Assembly (NCBI GenBank): GCA_963974125.1
Contig: CAXBCH010000014.1
Coordinates: 32,018 to 96,017 of the forward strand
Length of the DNA: 64,000 bases
Direction: 5' to 3'
From: an uncultured Haliea sp.
GTDB lineage: Bacteria; Pseudomonadota; Gammaproteobacteria; Pseudomonadales; Halieaceae
Each line of letters begins with the position of its first letter. Position 1 is the first letter of the stretch. The translations under genes and the position numbers were made by a program. The notes under the pieces were generated by a model. That model was given only the letters and a program-made list of their open reading frames with translations. It did no database searches and was not told the DNA's origin. This document shows, in pieces, positions 41,872-53,273 of this stretch.

Positions 41872-42690
41872 TCAGCTCAGCGCCGCCGGGAAAAACAGCG
41901 CCAGGCTGTTGTGGCGGACTGCACGCAGAAGATCCTCAACCGGCACCTGCTTGACCTCGGCTACCCGCTCGGCGACAAAGGGCAGGTAGAACGGGGCATT
42001 GGGGCGGCCCCTGTAGGGTACGGGGGTCAGGTAGGGCGAGTCGGTCTCCAGCACCAGCTGGTCCAGCGGAGTAGCGGCCACCACTTCCCGCACGTTGTCG
42101 GCCCGGTTGAAGGTGGTGATGCCGTTGAAACCCAGCATGAATCCCTCGTCGAGACAGAATTCCGCCAGCGCCAGGCCCGAGGTGAAGCTGTGAATCACGC
42201 CCTTGCGGCCGAGGTCGCGGCTGAATTCACCGAGAATGGCGCGGGTATCGTCGTCGGCTTCGCGGGTATGGATGACCACTGGCAGGTTCAGTTCCACCGC
42301 CAGTGCCAATTGTGCGGCGAATACCCGGCGCTGTACCGCCCGGTCGGCATGGTCGTAGAAGTAGTCGAGACCGATTTCGCCGACGGCAACGATGCGGGGA
42401 TCGCTGCCGCGCTCGCGGATGGTGTTCGCCACGCTGTTGTTGTAACTCTCCGCCTCGTGCGGATGAATGCCCTGGGTGCCCCAGATGTCCTCCGCAGCCC
42501 GGGTCAGGGCAAACACCCGGTCGAGGTTGGCAGCCGATACCGCAATCGTCACGATGCGTTCAATGCCGACTTCGCGTGCACGGGCCAGGGTCTGTGCCAG
42601 TTGCTCCTGGTCCAGATAATCGAGGTGGCAATGGGTTTCAATCAGCGGGGTCGCGTAGATCGGGATGTCGCGTCGCTTGCTGGTGCTCAT
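41872..42690 (-). CDS. TatD family hydrolase
   Basis: ETHCHLD, GIHPH, GEIGLDY and ETDSPYL. Confidence 0.9.
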   Translation of the reverse strand: MSTSKRRDIPIYATPLIETHCHLDYLDQEQLAQTLARAREVGIERIVTIAVSAANLDRVFALTRAAEDIWGTQGIHPHEAESYNNSVANTIRERGSDPRIVAVGEIGLDYFYDHADRAVQRRVFAAQLALAVELNLPVVIHTREADDDTRAILGEFSRDLGRKGVIHSFTSGLALAEFCLDEGFMLGFNGITTFNRADNVREVVAATPLDQLVLETDSPYLTPVPYRGRPNAPFYLPFVAERVAEVKQVPVEDLLRAVRHNSLALFFPAALS

Positions 42691-42712
42691 TGTCTGTCCG
42701 GAAAGCCGAGGT

Positions 42713-43702
42713 TCAGTGCGGGTTCAGGGGCGACAGCATAGCAGGATAACGGACTCGCTGGGCCGCCGTGTTGTCCGCGGCCATGGCCCGGATGGTGTCC
42801 AGTACCTGGTCCCAGAGCCAGCAGTGCATGGCGGAGTGGCTGGTGCGCCTGTGGGCCACCAGCATGTACTTGAGGGTGTACTCGCTCCCGGGCGGCGTCG
42901 GCAGCGCCACAATGCCGTCGGTGGCATGGGAATTCTGCAGCACATAGGCAGGACCCGGCAGGAAGTAGTCGGTGCTGCGCAGCACCTCCATCGCGGTCAT
43001 GAGGTGTGAGGTTTCCAGCGATCCCTGTTGCGGGTGGCGCACGCGCATGAAGGCTTCGGAAGTCCGGGCCAGCTCGACCTGTTCGAGGTCGGGCACGTAA
43101 ACCCGGATCACCGGGTACAGCGCCAGCCGCTCCCAGGTGATCTCGCCGTGAGTCAGGGGGTGGCCCTCGCGAACCAGGATCGCGGGTGGCGCGGTACCCA
43201 GCACCTGGGTCCGGAATTCCTCGGGATAGTGGGCCTGGGCGATGTGGATGGCAAAATCGAGACTCCCTGTGGCCAACTGTTCGAGCTGGTTTTCCACCCG
43301 GGTAATGGTGCGGATTGAAAGTCTCGGGGCATACTGGTGCAGACGCCGGATCAGGCCTGGCAGCAGGGCTACTCCCACATACTCGGAGAGGGCGAAGGTG
43401 ATTTCACCGCTGTAGGTATAGGGATCGAAGCGCGAGCCCGATACCAGCCGGGTAATGTCGTGGAGCACGACCCCGAGTTCGGTGGCCAGCTCCCGGGCGC
43501 GGGGCGTGGGCTGTATCCCGCGATTGCTGCGGGTGAACAACGGGTCGCCAAAGAGGTCACGCAGGCGGGCCAGGGTTTTGCTCATGGCTGGCTGGGTGAT
43601 GTGCAGCCGCTCCGCGGCCCGCGAAACGCTGCGCTCCTCCAGCAGGGCCTGCAGGGCAACCAGCAGGTTCAGGTCGACTTTGTGGAGATTGAGGGTATCC
43701 AT
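42713..43702 (-). CDS. LysR family regulator (NodD/DntR/YidZ-like)
   Basis: DLNLLVALQALLEERSVSRAAERLHITQPAMSKTLARLRDLFGDPLF HTH. Confidence 0.9.
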   Translation of the reverse strand: MDTLNLHKVDLNLLVALQALLEERSVSRAAERLHITQPAMSKTLARLRDLFGDPLFTRSNRGIQPTPRARELATELGVVLHDITRLVSGSRFDPYTYSGEITFALSEYVGVALLPGLIRRLHQYAPRLSIRTITRVENQLEQLATGSLDFAIHIAQAHYPEEFRTQVLGTAPPAILVREGHPLTHGEITWERLALYPVIRVYVPDLEQVELARTSEAFMRVRHPQQGSLETSHLMTAMEVLRSTDYFLPGPAYVLQNSHATDGIVALPTPPGSEYTLKYMLVAHRRTSHSAMHCWLWDQVLDTIRAMAADNTAAQRVRYPAMLSPLNPH

Positions 43703-43711
43703 CGCTGCTAC

Positions 43712-43777
43712 ATGATTTCAATTCATGAAGATCATAACAAAAATACATTGGATATATATTAGTGGTTTGCCTAAAAT
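43712..43777 (+). promoter_or_regulatory. LysR box and sigma70-like promoter firing away from the LysR gene
   Basis: ATGA-N7-TCAT (T-N11-A) at 43712-43726; -35 TTGGAT 43748-43753, 18-bp spacer, -10 TAAAAT 43772-43777; AT-rich. Confidence 0.55.
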
Positions 43778-43783
43778 TTTCCT

Positions 43784-43878
43784 ATGCGACAAATCCTTCC
43801 GGGCAGGAGTCTCCGGAAGGGTCCGTCCAGGTCCAGACAGACTGTAATTTCAAACCCGCCGCGAGGCGGGGTTTTTTT
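43784..43878 (+). ncRNA. Candidate ~95-nt small regulatory RNA
   Basis: Promoter upstream, 5' hairpin CCTTCCGG/CCGGAAGG and an intrinsic terminator on the + strand with no + strand gene to terminate. Confidence 0.55.
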
Positions 43879-45316
43879 GTCTGCGGCGTCTGTCCGGACG
43901 CGGCAGGACTGCGGTCTCCAGCTCCTCAAGAGCGCTCTCCAGGCAGGCCTTGTAGCGCTCTGGCTGGGGCAGCATCTCGCGATCCGCGAGCACTGAGATG
44001 GTTACCTTGCCGCAATAGCTGAAGAACATGTGGAAGATGCCCAGCCCCGGGGTGAGTACACCCAGACCGTAGTAGTCCACCAGCCGCGCGCCGGCGCAAT
44101 AGAGCGGGAAGTCCGGTCCGGCTACGTTCGAGACCACGGTGGTGACATTGACCGGCATGTAGCTCGACAGGTGATTGCGTGCCCAGAACCCCAGCACTGG
44201 CCGGGTCAGCGCGGGGGCAAACACGCCCGCCAGTTTGAGTACGTCCACCATGGGGCTGGCTTCGCCCGAGCGCTGGGCCTCGATCGCGCTCCGGTGAATG
44301 GATTGCAACCTTTGCGCCGGGTCGGCGATGTCCGTGTGCAGGGACGCGAACACCGAGCCCACCTGGTTGTTGTCTTCACTGCTGTCCCGACGGGTGCGCA
44401 TGTTCAGGGGGATTGTCGCCACCAACGCAGTCTCCGCCGCTTCATCCAGCTCGGTCAAATAGCGTCGCAGGGCGCCGCCGGTGATGGCCAGGGCGACATC
44501 ATTGACCTTGACCCCGGCCGCGTCCTTGATGGCCCGGATACGCTCCAGACTGAACTCGGCGGCAGTGAACACCCGATGCGGTCCCACCGGCCGGTTGAAC
44601 CGGGTTTTGGGTGCGCTGATCTCCGGGGGCGGGACCTCTTTGCGCAATATCGCTGTGAGGTAGCGGGCGAGCTGGGCCGAGGTGCTGAGCCCACCGCTGA
44701 CCACACCGGCGACGTTGCGGATACCGTTGATCGAAGCTCGCGCCAGCAGTTCGGCGACACTGGGCTGCGGGTCCACCAGCTTCGCCGGTTCAGCCTCTGT
44801 CGCGGCGGCCTGCGGGTCGGCGACCAGGTCGTGAATCAGGGCGACGATGCTGGTGCCCGCCATGCCATCGACCAGGGAGTGATGAATCTTGGTATAGATG
44901 GCGAAACTGCCCTTTGGCAGCCCCGGTATCCGGTCCAGACCTTCAATGATCCAGGCCTCCCAAAGGGGCCTGCCCATGTCCAGGGGGCGGGAGTGCAGGC
45001 GGGCTACCTGGATGCACAGCTGGCGCCAGTCTCCCGGTTTCGGCAGGGCGATATGGCGCAGATGAAATTCGACATCGAAACGCGCATCCTTGACCCAGTA
45101 GGGGCGGTCCAGTCCCCCGGGGACCCGCACCAGCCGGGTGCGAAACAGCGGCTGGTTGGCGAGACGCCGCTCGAAAGTGGCGATCACCTGCTTGAAGCGA
45201 ACTTTGCCGCCGGGAGCGGTCGAAGGATCATAGATTCCCAGCGAGCCCACGTGCTGGGGGGTGTTGGGTTGCTCCATGTTGATGAATGCGGAGTCGAGGA
45301 TGCCAAGTTGCTTCAT
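43850..45316 (-). CDS. Wax ester/triacylglycerol synthase (WS/DGAT) O-acyltransferase
   Basis: HHSLVDG catalytic HHxxxDG, DVEFHLRHIALPKPG, RPLWE and VVSNVAGP. Confidence 0.92.
   Translation of the reverse strand: MKQLGILDSAFINMEQPNTPQHVGSLGIYDPSTAPGGKVRFKQVIATFERRLANQPLFRTRLVRVPGGLDRPYWVKDARFDVEFHLRHIALPKPGDWRQLCIQVARLHSRPLDMGRPLWEAWIIEGLDRIPGLPKGSFAIYTKIHHSLVDGMAGTSIVALIHDLVADPQAAATEAEPAKLVDPQPSVAELLARASINGIRNVAGVVSGGLSTSAQLARYLTAILRKEVPPPEISAPKTRFNRPVGPHRVFTAAEFSLERIRAIKDAAGVKVNDVALAITGGALRRYLTELDEAAETALVATIPLNMRTRRDSSEDNNQVGSVFASLHTDIADPAQRLQSIHRSAIEAQRSGEASPMVDVLKLAGVFAPALTRPVLGFWARNHLSSYMPVNVTTVVSNVAGPDFPLYCAGARLVDYYGLGVLTPGLGIFHMFFSYCGKVTISVLADREMLPQPERYKACLESALEELETAVLPRPDRRRRQKNPASRRV
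43852..43878 (+). terminator. Rho-independent terminator
   Basis: AAA-CCCGCC-GCGA-GGCGGG-G-T7; GNRA tetraloop. Confidence 0.8.
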
Positions 45317-45440
45317 GTGTGTGCGGTCCCGCCCTGTTTGCGCGCCAGGGTAATCAGTGTGTAACGTCTGTAGCCGTTATATCATTAAGCCACTGGCTGC
45401 TCTACCCGGCAGCCCTCCCGACTCAGGGCAGGAACAAGTG

Positions 45441-46748
45441 ATGACTCCATGGCTGACTATCCGGCAGCTGGCCACCGCGACGTTGCTGGCACTGCTGCTG
45501 GCCAACGCTGTTGCGGCCGCCCCGGCGGCGACTTACGGGCGCGAGTTCGTGCGCCTGGACCGATACTGGCCCGACGAAGCCCCGGTGGCGCTGCTGCCGA
45601 AGCCGCCACGGCAGGGGCAGGCGGCAGCGGTGGCGGCCCAGCGCGAGCGGCTGCTGGAACTGGAGCAGGAGCAGGGGCCCTATGCCGCGGCCCTGGCGGA
45701 ACCGCTGATGGATATGGGGCGCTTCCTGCAGGAAGCCGGAGACGCGGAACAGGCGGGGCAGCTCTACCAGCGGGCGCTGCATGTCCTGCGGATCAATGAG
45801 GGACTCTACAGCGACAACCAGATGCCGCTGCTGCGCAATCTGTTCGCCGTCCACCGCAGCCTGGGTGACTGGCAGGCGCTGGATGCACGCTACGAGTATT
45901 TTTTCCGGCTCGCAGCCACTTCGGGCCAGATGGACGTGGAATCTGCGGTGGCATACTTCCGCTGGCAGCGGGAGGCGCTGCGACGACAACTCGATAGCAG
46001 TGACCACCGCCGCCTGCTGCGCCTGTACGAGGCCAATGAGCAGTTGCTTGCCGCTGCCGACCCGGGGCAGGACGCGGCGGGCTACTGGCAACTGCTGGAC
46101 AGCCAGCTGCGCAACCTGTATCTGGTGCAGGCGCTGGCAACCCCCCGCAGGGTGAGCACGACACGCGGTTTTACCTCGGCAGCGCCTTTTCGCGGCGAGC
46201 CCATGCAGGAAATGGATGTCCATGAGCAACGCCTGGCGAATGTCCAGCGCACTGCGGTGGCGCGAGGCAGTGAGCTGCTCGTCGACTTCATTGACTCGCC
46301 CGCCCTGGGGGATGCAGGGCTGCGGGCGCAGGCACTGCTGGCGCTGGCGGACTGGCACCAGTGGAACGGTCTCCGCGGACGGGCCGGCGAGGATTACCGG
46401 CAGGTGGTCAGTTTCCTGCAGACGACCCGCCAGGAAGGCCGGCTGCAGGAGTGGTTTGGCAGCCCGGTGGAGCTGCCGGACAACGGTGCCTTTTCCCGTG
46501 ATCCCGGGGCGGGCGGCGTGCGGGTATCTGCGCGCTTTGCTGTTACCGCGGAAGGGCGCCCGCAGGATATCGAAACGGTGGCTGCGGAGGAGAGCGAGAA
46601 GGGTTTCGCCATGCGCCTGTACCGGAGCCTGCTCGCGACCCGGTTCCGGCCGCGATTCGAGGCCGGGACTGCGGTGGCCACCGCGGAGGTCGAGCGCAAC
46701 TACCGCTACCTGGACCCCGAGGCGCTCAGGCGTTTTCGATCACCATGA
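45441..46748 (+). CDS. Exported TPR protein with C-terminal TonB_C-like domain
   Basis: Signal peptide, ALHVLRINEGLYS TPR-like helices and C-terminal RFAVTAEGRP...RFRPRFEAG. Confidence 0.6.
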   Translation: MTPWLTIRQLATATLLALLLANAVAAAPAATYGREFVRLDRYWPDEAPVALLPKPPRQGQAAAVAAQRERLLELEQEQGPYAAALAEPLMDMGRFLQEAGDAEQAGQLYQRALHVLRINEGLYSDNQMPLLRNLFAVHRSLGDWQALDARYEYFFRLAATSGQMDVESAVAYFRWQREALRRQLDSSDHRRLLRLYEANEQLLAAADPGQDAAGYWQLLDSQLRNLYLVQALATPRRVSTTRGFTSAAPFRGEPMQEMDVHEQRLANVQRTAVARGSELLVDFIDSPALGDAGLRAQALLALADWHQWNGLRGRAGEDYRQVVSFLQTTRQEGRLQEWFGSPVELPDNGAFSRDPGAGGVRVSARFAVTAEGRPQDIETVAAEESEKGFAMRLYRSLLATRFRPRFEAGTAVATAEVERNYRYLDPEALRRFRSP

Positions 46749-51559: not shown

Positions 51560-53149
51560 TCAGCTGGAGGCCTTCGGGGCGGCCTTCCGTGGGGCGGCCT
51601 TCCGCGGGGCGGCCTTCCGCGGGGCGGTCTTCTTCTGTCCGCCCCGGCCCGAGGTGCCCTGGTCCGCGGCCCGATCCTGCAGGTAGCGGGCCAGCATCGC
51701 CACCGGCCGGCCGGTGGCGCCCTTGGGGCTGCTGTTCCAGGCAGAACCGGCGATGTCCAGGTGGGCCCAGGGATAGTCCTCGGCGAATTGGGACAGGAAG
51801 CAGGCAGCGGTGACACTGCCACCCTCGGGGCCGCCGATATTCGCGAGGTCGGCAAAGTTGCTTTTCAGCTGCTTGCGGTAATCGTCCCACAGGGGCATGC
51901 GCCAGCCGCGATCATGGCTGGTCTCGCCGGCAGCCAGCAGGTTGGCAGCCAGCTCTTCATTGTTGGCGTAAACCGCGGAGGCGTGCGAACCCAGCGCGAT
52001 CACGCAGGCTCCGGTGAGCGTGGCGAGATCGACCACAGCCGCGGGCTTGAAGCGCCTGGCGTAGCTCAGGGCATCGCACAACACCAGCCGGCCCTCGGCA
52101 TCCGTATTCAGGACCTCGATGGTCTTGCCCGCCATGCTGGTAATAACGTCGCCGGGCTTGGTGGCGCGGCCGCTGGGCATGTTTTCCGCCGCTGCGATAA
52201 CGCCGGTGACGTTGAGTGGCAGAGCCATTTCAATCACCGCCTGCAGGGTGCCGAGCACGCCGGCCGCGCCACACATGTCGTATTTCATTTCGTCCATCTT
52301 GGCGCCGGGCTTGAGGGAGATACCGCCGGAGTCGAAGGTAATGCCCTTGCCGACCAGTACCTGGGGCGCTTCTCCGGACTTGCCACCCTTGTATTCGATG
52401 ACGATCAGCTTGGCGGGTTCGTCACTGCCGGCCGAGACCGACAGCAGCGCGCCCATGCCCAGTTCACGCATTTTTTTCTCTTCCAGCACCTGGGTTCGAA
52501 CCTTGCTGTTGCCCCGAGCCAGCTTGCGGGCTTCGCTGGCCAGGTAGCTCGGAGTACAGATATTGCCGGGCAGGTTGCCGAGCTCACGGGTATAATTGAT
52601 GCCGCGTCCTACTGCGGCCCCGGTGTCCAGCGCCAGCTGTGCCGCTTTTACCGCCAGCGTGTCGCCGGGATTGACGACCAGCTTGCTCAAGGCCAGGGGA
52701 TCCTTGGGCTTGGTGACAGTGGCCGAGTAGCGGTAGCTGCTGCTGACCAGGCTGCGGGACAGGAGTTCCAGCAGCCAGTCCGGTGCGACCGTGGCAGAGC
52801 CCAGGTCGGCGACGTGGAACAGGGCTTCGGTGGCACTGCTGGCACCGAGGGCGCTGTTCAGGCCCTGCAGGGTTTCGCGGGCAGCGCTCTGGTCAAACTT
52901 TGCCTGTTCGCCGCAGCCCAGCAGCAGCACCCTCGCGGCGCCGCCGATACCGGGCAGCATCAAGGTCTGGCCGGCCTTGCCCTTGAAGTCGCCGAGCTTG
53001 AGCGCCGTGTCGAGACTGCCACTGCTGGCGCTGTCCAGGGCCTGCGCTGCCGAAGACAGCTGGCCGCCGTAAACCGGCACGATGGCGCACTGGGTTTTGG
53101 CCTTGGCGATGTCGCTAGTGGTACGTGCAGTAAAAGTCAGTTTGCTCAT
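51560..53149 (-). CDS. pepA: Cytosol leucyl aminopeptidase PepA with basic C-terminal extension
   Basis: GKGITFDSGGISLKP, MKYDMCG, NTDAEGRL and WAHLDIAG; canonical pepA-holC-valS/lptF synteny. Confidence 0.95.
   Translation of the reverse strand: MSKLTFTARTTSDIAKAKTQCAIVPVYGGQLSSAAQALDSASSGSLDTALKLGDFKGKAGQTLMLPGIGGAARVLLLGCGEQAKFDQSAARETLQGLNSALGASSATEALFHVADLGSATVAPDWLLELLSRSLVSSSYRYSATVTKPKDPLALSKLVVNPGDTLAVKAAQLALDTGAAVGRGINYTRELGNLPGNICTPSYLASEARKLARGNSKVRTQVLEEKKMRELGMGALLSVSAGSDEPAKLIVIEYKGGKSGEAPQVLVGKGITFDSGGISLKPGAKMDEMKYDMCGAAGVLGTLQAVIEMALPLNVTGVIAAAENMPSGRATKPGDVITSMAGKTIEVLNTDAEGRLVLCDALSYARRFKPAAVVDLATLTGACVIALGSHASAVYANNEELAANLLAAGETSHDRGWRMPLWDDYRKQLKSNFADLANIGGPEGGSVTAACFLSQFAEDYPWAHLDIAGSAWNSSPKGATGRPVAMLARYLQDRAADQGTSGRGGQKKTAPRKAAPRKAAPRKAAPKASS
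51576..51635. repeat. 15-bp tandem repeat (3 near-perfect + 1 degenerate) encoding KAAPR repeats of the PepA tail
   Basis: GGGGCGGCCTTCCG(T/C) at 51576, 51591 and 51606; degenerate copy at 51621. Confidence 0.9.
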
Positions 53150-53273
53150 CAGGTATCCCTGTCAGTTTTCGTGGGCGGGTGTCAGGGCGCTAGTGTATGA
53201 TGATGGGCGATGAAACTGAACCGCTGGTGTTGCTCTTCTCCGGGCGATCTCTGGCGCTGCAACCCGGGCTTGC

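Follow-up and report, generated by a model that had tools for sequence, protein, structure and literature searches.

OxyS of Escherichia coli is a small RNA (sRNA) of approximately 100 nucleotides (nt) with an intrinsic terminator; its gene is divergent from that of its activator, the LysR-type regulator OxyR. In enterobacteria, GcvB is likewise divergent from a LysR-type regulator, GcvA; it is Hfq dependent, has a conserved single-stranded seed and is itself subject to RNA-RNA sponging by SroC. Sponging of one sRNA by another is already known. Here we analyse a locus of similar layout in a 64,000-nt stretch of DNA (the window) from an uncultured Haliea sp., a member of the Halieaceae (the OM60/NOR5 clade), which are abundant coastal marine bacteria. 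We predict that the window encodes a ~95-nt sRNA that is controlled by a neighbouring LysR-type regulator and that would act in trans, as an Hfq-type sRNA, by pairing with a CrcZ-like RNA. It would be the founding example of a Halieaceae-specific family, and we put the probability of this reading at roughly 0.6.

In the oxyR-oxyS spacer of E. coli, predicted OxyR repeats (PProCoM) are centred at -66 (IR1), -44 and -35 (IR3) relative to oxyS, and IR1 and IR3 correspond in position to the dyad at -65 and the block over the -35 element at our locus (PMC5002191). Unlike OxyS, however, the Haliea RNA has no sequence or Rfam similarity to the E. coli sRNA, its regulator is not OxyR (43 bits against an NCBIfam cut-off of 329), and its proposed target is a regulatory RNA rather than stress mRNAs. 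GcvB is longer (~200 nt), with a G/U-rich seed and many ABC-transporter mRNAs as targets, whereas the seed here is C-rich and the regulator is not GcvA (46 bits, NCBIfam cut-off 288).

The proposed target resembles CrcZ (RF01675) of Pseudomonas and Azotobacter, which is encoded between cbrB and pcnB behind a sigma-54 promoter (TGGCAC-N5-CTGCAT) and carries several AAnAAnAA/ARN motifs (PMC8395346). Hfq RIL-seq/GRIL-seq in P. aeruginosa has yielded chimeras of CrcZ with RhlS, AS2779 and PrrF1, the significance of which was left undecided; the authors raised the idea that CrcZ may sponge sRNAs besides Hfq (PMC10214189). Those chimeras are experimental, whereas the evidence presented here is drawn from sequence only and consists of a dedicated, conserved complementarity of 12-15 bp with compensatory changes, in an sRNA that has its own LysR regulator. 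As far as our searches show, a regulator-linked sRNA with a conserved seed matching a conserved CrcZ module is undescribed, and a literature search for small RNAs in Halieaceae found no paper that describes a riboregulator in this family.

Complementarity between the sRNA seed and a CrcZ-like RNA

The CrcZ-like RNA in the genome that contains the window (G000) is unannotated and lies between a cbrB-like gene and pcnB (contig C12, ~52944-53200; locus L180, 1944-2200). The product of the upstream gene is an NtrC-family, sigma-54-dependent response regulator, PcnB downstream reaches 488 bits (cut-off 306), and both the position and the promoter type are those of Pseudomonas crcZ (PMC8395346). The RNA has a sigma-54 promoter (TGGCACggcacCTGCAT), rows of AAUAACAAUAA motifs, AAUAA repeats and ARN motifs, and consists of two units that both close with GGACCUGGA(C/U)GGGGAAG-loop-CUUCCCC. 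The spacer matches the Rfam CrcZ model below threshold (20.7 bits, E = 0.026, gathering score 95), and compared with RF01675 the target RNA is shorter (~200-400 nt), with one or two units that end in GGACCUGGAUGGGGAAG...CUUCCCC. The motif UGGACCUGGA(U/C)GGG occurs once or twice per CrcZ-like RNA. Each such site is located directly 3' of A-rich (ARN) tracts and overlaps the first Gs, i.e., the 5' arm, of the GGGGAAG...CUUCCCC hairpin.

Within its own genome, the seed of the predicted sRNA can form 13 Watson-Crick pairs and 1 G-U pair with the CrcZ-like RNA. The sole perfect complement of the seed of at least 13 nt in a whole-genome search, besides the gene itself, is UGGACCUGGACGG in the contig C12 spacer, and a second CrcZ site of 11-12 nt follows ~100 nt downstream of the first. 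The predicted duplex between the seed region and CrcZ has an energy of -33.0 kcal/mol, compared to -20.8 +/- 3.0 kcal/mol for 1000 shuffles, none of which is as low. Cofolding of both full RNAs, in which site 1 is used, gains approximately 15 kcal/mol over the separate folds.

To follow the pairing across the family, we took the cbrB-pcnB spacer from 49 further Halieaceae genomes; both RNAs could be read in 45, the window's own genome included. At the consensus level, the seed (CCCAUCCAGGUCCA) and the CrcZ motif (UGGACCUGGAUGGG) are perfectly complementary. Across the 45 genomes the longest contiguous helix has a median length of 13 bp (at least 12 bp in 36 genomes and at least 10 bp in 39), while helices in the reversed-sequence control have a median of 7 bp and never exceed 9 bp. 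Haliea clade A, to which the window belongs, has the seed CCGUCC together with the site GGACGG, as do G307 and G308; in Haliea clade B and the majority of other genera, the combination is CCAUCC and GGAUGG. An A-U pair has thus been exchanged for G-C by a double change (A to G in the seed, U to C in the site) in three lineages, and on the tree of the LysR regulators the G-C state is found at two or more distant positions that are separated by A-U lineages. In four Luminiphilus-type genomes it is the neighbouring pair that has changed, from U-A to C-G (seed CACUCAGG, site CCUGGGUG). Seed variants other than these (C to U in several lineages, A to G facing an unchanged U) are mostly transitions that leave G-U pairs, and one clear A-C mismatch between seed and site is present, in G098.

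We consider it probable that the sRNA pairs functionally with CrcZ, but a number of observations weigh against this. Approximately 0.1 perfect 13-mers are expected genome-wide by chance, and the match in a single genome is not significant alone. When crude intergenic strands are ranked by duplex energy with the 22-nt window-specific region, CrcZ comes 15th of 2766. There are 91 seed-complement sites of at least 11 nt, nearly all of them within coding sequences, where 11-nt sites are common because CUGGACCUGGA is a frequent Leu-Asp-Leu codon string. Since seed and site are both conserved, the independent evidence amounts to a handful of paired changes, and a sign test for paired changes on the LysR tree is underpowered (median p 0.5). 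Moreover, a seed that complements the site when read on the + strand matches it when read on the - strand, so that covariation alone carries no strand information; the strand is therefore assigned from the promoter, the G-U bias and the U tract, all presented below. The sRNA 5' end is a prediction based on the promoter. Site 1 is mismatched in G019, G066, G021 and G101, in which site 2 is intact, and pairing is poor in G098 and G309, which are of the open reading frame (ORF)-bearing type, and in G306; the subclade with the ORF has weaker pairing. Finally, the CrcZ motif is intact in Halieaceae genomes that have neither the sRNA nor the LysR regulator, and the module GAGACCUGGAUGGGGAAGG...CUUCCCC follows A-rich tracts in the cbrB-pcnB spacer of other families without the sRNA (L272-L275, L277, L278). 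Being older and more widespread than the sRNA, the motif must serve some purpose independent of it, and the sRNA seems to have evolved within the Halieaceae to target a pre-existing CrcZ motif.

mRNAs as possible alternative targets

The alternative that we take most seriously, although we regard it as unlikely, is that the sRNA is real and LysR-linked but has mRNAs as its targets, the match to CrcZ being either incidental or that of a mere sponge or competitor, with no effect on CrcZ itself. The energy ranking, the many sites of 11-12 nt inside coding sequences and the occurrence of the CrcZ motif in genomes without the sRNA would all fit such a view. So would a candidate translation-initiation site with approximately 15 complementary bases, located upstream of a 340-residue ORF on contig C67, as well as the consideration that the abundant CrcZ-sRNA chimeras of P. 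aeruginosa may be artefacts of CrcZ abundance (PMC10214189). However, pairing at the C67 site relies on AGACA, which is unconserved outside the window's clade, and the genome has no other non-coding site of at least 13 nt. In at least three lineages the Watson-Crick character of the CrcZ helix has been preserved by double changes, which is unexpected of an incidental match. Single-genome prediction of mRNA targets with crude gene calls was too noisy to be of use, the top matches being internal GTG 'starts'.

A same-sense copy of the seed, CUCCAUCCAGGUCCC, is present in the groEL 3' untranslated region, 6 nt before the terminator (G000 contig C7, 93490-93553; L181, ~2008-2054). We considered and rejected it as a second copy: it is kept in G010, G013 and G003 only, partly in G001, and diverges in other Haliea. 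Since only the closest relatives have kept it, its similarity to the seed is probably due to chance.

RNA character and strand

Four independent lines of evidence, namely the promoter, the pairing of the 5' hairpin, the G-U bias and the U tract, support an RNA gene on the + strand, and we are highly confident that the predicted gene is real. The 95-nt RNA folds with -37.7 kcal/mol (z = -2.7). Covariation in relatives had been suggested as a check by the initial annotation, which was made from the window sequence alone and proposed a new sRNA at this position, and compensatory changes are indeed found in the 5' hairpin. Within the genus, 8 of its 9 pairs have changes on both sides; 92.2% of the alignment cells are paired, compared to 83.4 +/- 1.3% in shuffled alignments, and there are 8 double-change pairs versus 4.1 +/- 0.9, neither value being reached by any of 500 shuffles. 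The hairpin contains 17 G-U cells when read on the + strand but 2 A-C cells, which would be G-U if read on the - strand. This excess of 17 to 2 identifies the + strand as the selected one.

The terminator stem is followed by a tract of U7-9 on its + strand side only, and the tract is kept in all family members, including genera in which the wax ester synthase gene (WS/DGAT) is 0.4-2.2 kb distant or was not found in the fetched locus. Because the tract persists where WS/DGAT is not adjacent, the terminator hairpin must be more than a WS/DGAT terminator. Among the ways in which its proposal might fail, the initial annotation had named that the hairpin serves WS/DGAT only, that conservation ends at the terminator, or that a known Rfam family matches. 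None of the three holds: the RNA is conserved where WS/DGAT is not adjacent, the promoter, the 5' hairpin and the single-stranded core are conserved family-wide, and Rfam gives no match.

That there is no separate RNA gene, and that the conserved elements act on the - strand or as DNA (as WS/DGAT terminator, LysR operators, and lysR promoter plus 5' untranslated region), is in our opinion very improbable. This view could be extended to a - strand RNA that might carry a copy of the CrcZ motif and bind the same protein as CrcZ. It has in its favour that both flanking genes are on the - strand, that the terminator is palindromic enough to fold on either strand, being followed by UUUGAAAUU on the - strand, and that - strand identity with the CrcZ motif would generate the same 'covariation' pattern. 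It does not account for a U7-9 tract found on the + side only and kept where no - strand gene ends, for -10 (TAnnnT) and -35 elements that keep the correct + strand spacing, or for the 17 G-U cells on the + strand versus 2 on the - strand. In addition, most differences between seed and site amount to G-U pairs if the + strand is the pairing one, the one clear A-C being that of G098, and insertions of whole hairpins whose ends still pair are RNA-like and not operator-like.

Promoter and link to the LysR-type regulator

The -35 and -10 hexamers and the 18-bp spacer proposed in the initial annotation are present in the sequence (Table 1). A promoter scan reads the site as TGGATA-17-TAAAAT, and this is the only sigma-70-like site within 42500-45500, compared with 0.6 expected. 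The promoter is weak, with three of six matches at -35 and a spacer of 18 bp. Among genera, the -35 block (ATACATTGGATATATAT) is almost unchanged, while T-A-n-n-n-T is kept as the -10 hexamer at 17-18 bp from the -35 element, with the inner three bases varying freely. The conserved block around the -35 hexamer probably serves also as a LysR activation site and as part of the lysR promoter. Two candidate sites for the regulator are available: a dyad, which is conserved among genera as TATGAATnnAATTCATG at a constant distance to the -35 element, and a conserved ATACA-N5-TATAT over the -35 itself. Their positions (-65 etc.) are counted from the predicted transcription start.

The best NCBIfam matches of the LysR regulator are BsrA and LeuO, both far under the cut-offs, and it has no equivalog. 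Its orthologues near the sRNA are 52-100% identical. Among 151 Halieaceae genomes, 71 have both the sRNA and the LysR gene, 5 the sRNA only, 14 the LysR gene only and 61 neither, counts that take no account of relatedness. Four of the five sRNA-only genomes have borderline matches of 30-32 bits. Eight of the LysR-only genomes come from one genus (g54, including G107, which has a seed of the Luminiphilus type) and two more are positive with model R2 (see below); named Luminiphilus genomes carry a variant sRNA that model R1 could miss. In 68 of the 71 genomes holding both, the two genes are adjacent in the same divergent layout, with a gap of 79-229 nt, and no LysR orthologue was found in five sRNA-negative genomes. 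The sRNA and the LysR gene are plainly, judging from these patterns, inherited and lost as one unit. Adjacency, co-occurrence, the -65 dyad and the lack of an Rfam match all favour the initial proposal of a new sRNA divergent from, and probably controlled by, a LysR regulator, and we consider control by this regulator likely.

Distribution and variation of the family

A 251-bp query matched the locus in all 14 other Haliea genomes and in two other genera. Model R1, a covariance model built from 15 Haliea sequences, detects a single copy in each of 76 Halieaceae genomes (of 151 searched), which represent 28 of 40 genera; model R2, covering the conserved 3' half of the sRNA, adds two further Halieaceae genera. 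Matches from a pattern scan include H. salexigens and H. alexandrii as well as Halioglobus, Pseudohalioglobus, Parahaliea, Kineobactrum, Sediminihaliea, Mangrovimicrobium, Seongchinamella and Luminiphilus/HTCC2080. When R2 was run on 150 genomes of the order, only terminator-level matches (25-32 bits) were obtained outside the family; these follow tRNA, groEL and other genes and have neither seed nor LysR neighbour. Likewise, the seed-plus-terminator pattern was not found in five other-family genomes that carry the CrcZ motif. The suggestion that the RNA belongs to no known family was borne out by Rfam 15, which gave no family match for the window or for six orthologous loci. The best scores in the window, anti-hemB (17.9 bits) and a Betaproteobacteria toxic sRNA (18 bits), compare with thresholds of ~50 and are driven by the hairpin-and-terminator shape (E > 0.6); the best score among the orthologues is 28 bits for Trp_leader, against a threshold of 41.

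Common to all members are CC(A/G)U(C/U)CAGGUCCA, a stretch of ~15 nt ending in UUUCAAA, and the terminator. Within the seed, which is unpaired or weakly paired in predicted folds, CAGGU is invariant in 51 sequences and the flanks are nearly so. Outside Haliea the sRNA is ~110-130 nt long, starts with AACUCGAAACA and has one or two variable hairpins, often with GAUGG pairing to the CCAUC of the seed. Its 5' end pairs with the bases after the seed, and this helix covaries (AACUC/GAGUU, UGUCAU/GUGACA, AUCUGA/UCAGAU, UGCAA/UUGCA). Length differences in the 5' part are due to inserted whole hairpins, and the ends still pair. By this comparison the Haliea sRNA is a shortened form, and the clade of the window has a weak version of the helix that joins the ends.

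In one subclade (L037, L039, L040, L043, L056, L162), the LysR-divergent promoter drives a predicted transcript of 180-190 nt, in which a ribosome-binding site and a hydrophobic ORF of ~28 residues (MFITATFGLYFALLGWIAWDEFHKAS) lie upstream of the seed and terminator. G017 has a LysR paralogue (L237, 2415-2750; 41% identity) with the same dyad and a similar divergent small ORF, without the seed. Such arrangements suggest that the sRNA is derived from the 3' portion of an mRNA for a small protein, or that it has a dual function in part of the family. These two cases, together with an ATG at the transcript start in 14 of 15 Haliea sequences, could be taken to mean that the transcript in general is a small-protein mRNA or dual-function RNA and not a pure riboregulator, but this is most improbable, given that the ATG frame in the window has no stop before the terminator (the ORF, 43784-43996, runs past the U tract), that the frame is disrupted by indels of 1-3 nt that distinguish Haliea clades, that there is no ribosome-binding site, and that the ATG is missing from L013 and from most other genera, where the start is AACUCG. 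A leaderless small ORF beginning at the +1 ATG was rejected as well.

The pattern CAGGTCC ... ACCCGCC-loop-GGCGGGTTTT also matches a multi-copy 39-nt element in Alteromonas (L048, L050, L053 and approximately 40 others), which is often near contig ends, has no LysR neighbour and could be one end of a mobile element or repeat. Pattern-scan matches in Alteromonas and in unrelated phyla, none with a LysR neighbour, were set aside as unrelated.

Proposed mechanism and significance

We propose that the LysR regulator binds the T-N11-A dyad at -65 and the block over the -35, and so would activate the weak sigma-70 promoter. The resulting sRNA would be bound by Hfq through its U tail, and its seed would base-pair with the CrcZ motif, as the complementarity and the covariation indicate. 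Hfq dependence is plausible: the terminator ends in U7 in the window (U7-9 in all members) and is preceded by an A/U-rich stretch, and the genome has an hfq gene whose product is 89% identical to E. coli Hfq over the first 66 residues. Hfq that holds CrcZ by its ARN tracts could anneal the seed to the motif beside those tracts, conceivably with its distal face on CrcZ and its proximal face on the sRNA. More speculatively, the duplex might open the adjacent hairpin and either destabilise or remodel CrcZ or loosen its hold on Hfq, leading to stronger catabolite repression; alternatively, CrcZ might sponge the sRNA. The LysR signal would thereby be coupled to CbrAB-CrcZ-Hfq carbon control. In the most specific version of this proposal, to which we give even odds, the sRNA is a dedicated anti-CrcZ riboregulator, the only conserved function of which is pairing with the CrcZ 3' module of each repeat unit, overriding or sharpening CbrAB-CrcZ-Hfq control in the OM60/NOR5 clade.

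If the pairing is true, an Hfq sponge would for the first time have a base-pairing antagonist, or a dedicated partner. The pairing would bear on the question, left undecided by the RIL-seq work in Pseudomonas, of whether base-pairing sRNAs are functional partners of CrcZ or whether CrcZ does no more than titrate Hfq, and it would mean that a second signal enters the control of the carbon-source hierarchy via the LysR regulator. A family-wide sRNA is now defined with its cognate LysR, its seed and a concrete candidate partner, and in many genera this module adjoins a wax-ester/triacylglycerol storage gene. The approach also indicates that sRNA-sRNA pairs can be found from sequence alone through intermolecular covariation.

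Other roles for the RNA were considered and rejected. The initial annotation had suggested that the GGA in the hairpin loop could bind CsrA/RsmA; this did not hold up, as the loop sequence varies even within Haliea (L003, L004 and L006, for example, have no GGA there). An RNA that sequesters CsrA/RsmA (of the CsrB or RsmY/Z type) would be expected to have several conserved GGA motifs, whereas the window has a single, unconserved one. We also rejected a cis-antisense role on WS/DGAT: the 29-nt overlap with that gene is confined to Haliea, and the sRNA is unchanged elsewhere.

Organisation of the locus

The features of the locus are collected in Table 1. The spacer between the LysR and WS/DGAT genes is 147 bp. 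Since both genes are on the - strand, the LysR gene has no divergent coding partner, as the initial annotation had stated. The other elements described there also stand as read, i.e., a perfect 8-bp hairpin, an unstructured segment behind it, and a GCGA-tetraloop terminator with T7 that overlaps the last 29 nt of the WS/DGAT coding sequence in antisense.

Table 1. Coordinates of genes, promoter elements and RNA features at the sRNA locus (positions in the window)
Feature	Position	Strand	Remarks
LysR-type regulator gene	42713-43702	-	329 residues; Pfam HTH_1 + LysR_substrate
Dyad ATGAtttcaatTCAT, 15 bp	43712-43726		ATGA-N7-TCAT, T-N11-A LysR box; centre at -65 from predicted sRNA start
Conserved block ATACATTGGATATATATTA	43744-43762	+	Near-invariant across 56 distinct intergenic sequences; holds the -35 hexamer
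-35 hexamer TTGGAT	43748-43753	+	Inside the conserved block
-10 hexamer TAAAAT	43772-43777	+	18-bp spacer from -35
Predicted sRNA, ~95 nt	43784-43878	+	Model R1, 95.5 bits; predicted start 7 nt past -10; 3' end = U tract
5' hairpin	43793-43822	+	Perfect 8-bp core stem CCTTCCGG/CCGGAAGG (43795-43802 / 43813-43820)
Single-stranded seed UCCGUCCAGGUCCA, 14 nt	43822-43835	+	Family consensus as in text (CCCAUCCAGGUCCA)
A/U-rich stretch AAUUUCAAA and intrinsic terminator	43847-43878	+	Putative Hfq-type 3' module
Terminator stem CCCGCC-GCGA-GGCGGG	43855-43870	+	Followed by G, then T7 at 43872-43878
WS/DGAT (wax ester synthase) gene	43850-45316	-	Pfam + TIGR02946

Upstream of WS/DGAT are two long ORFs, 45357-46748 (+ strand, 463 residues) and 45423-46358 (- strand, 311 residues), without Pfam or NCBIfam matches. 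At the other end of the gene, the WS/DGAT stop codon TGA (43850-43852) lies just past the terminator hairpin, within the - strand tail UUUGAAAUU. The hairpin codes for the final WS/DGAT residues and could be a bidirectional terminator, an arrangement that is specific to Haliea.

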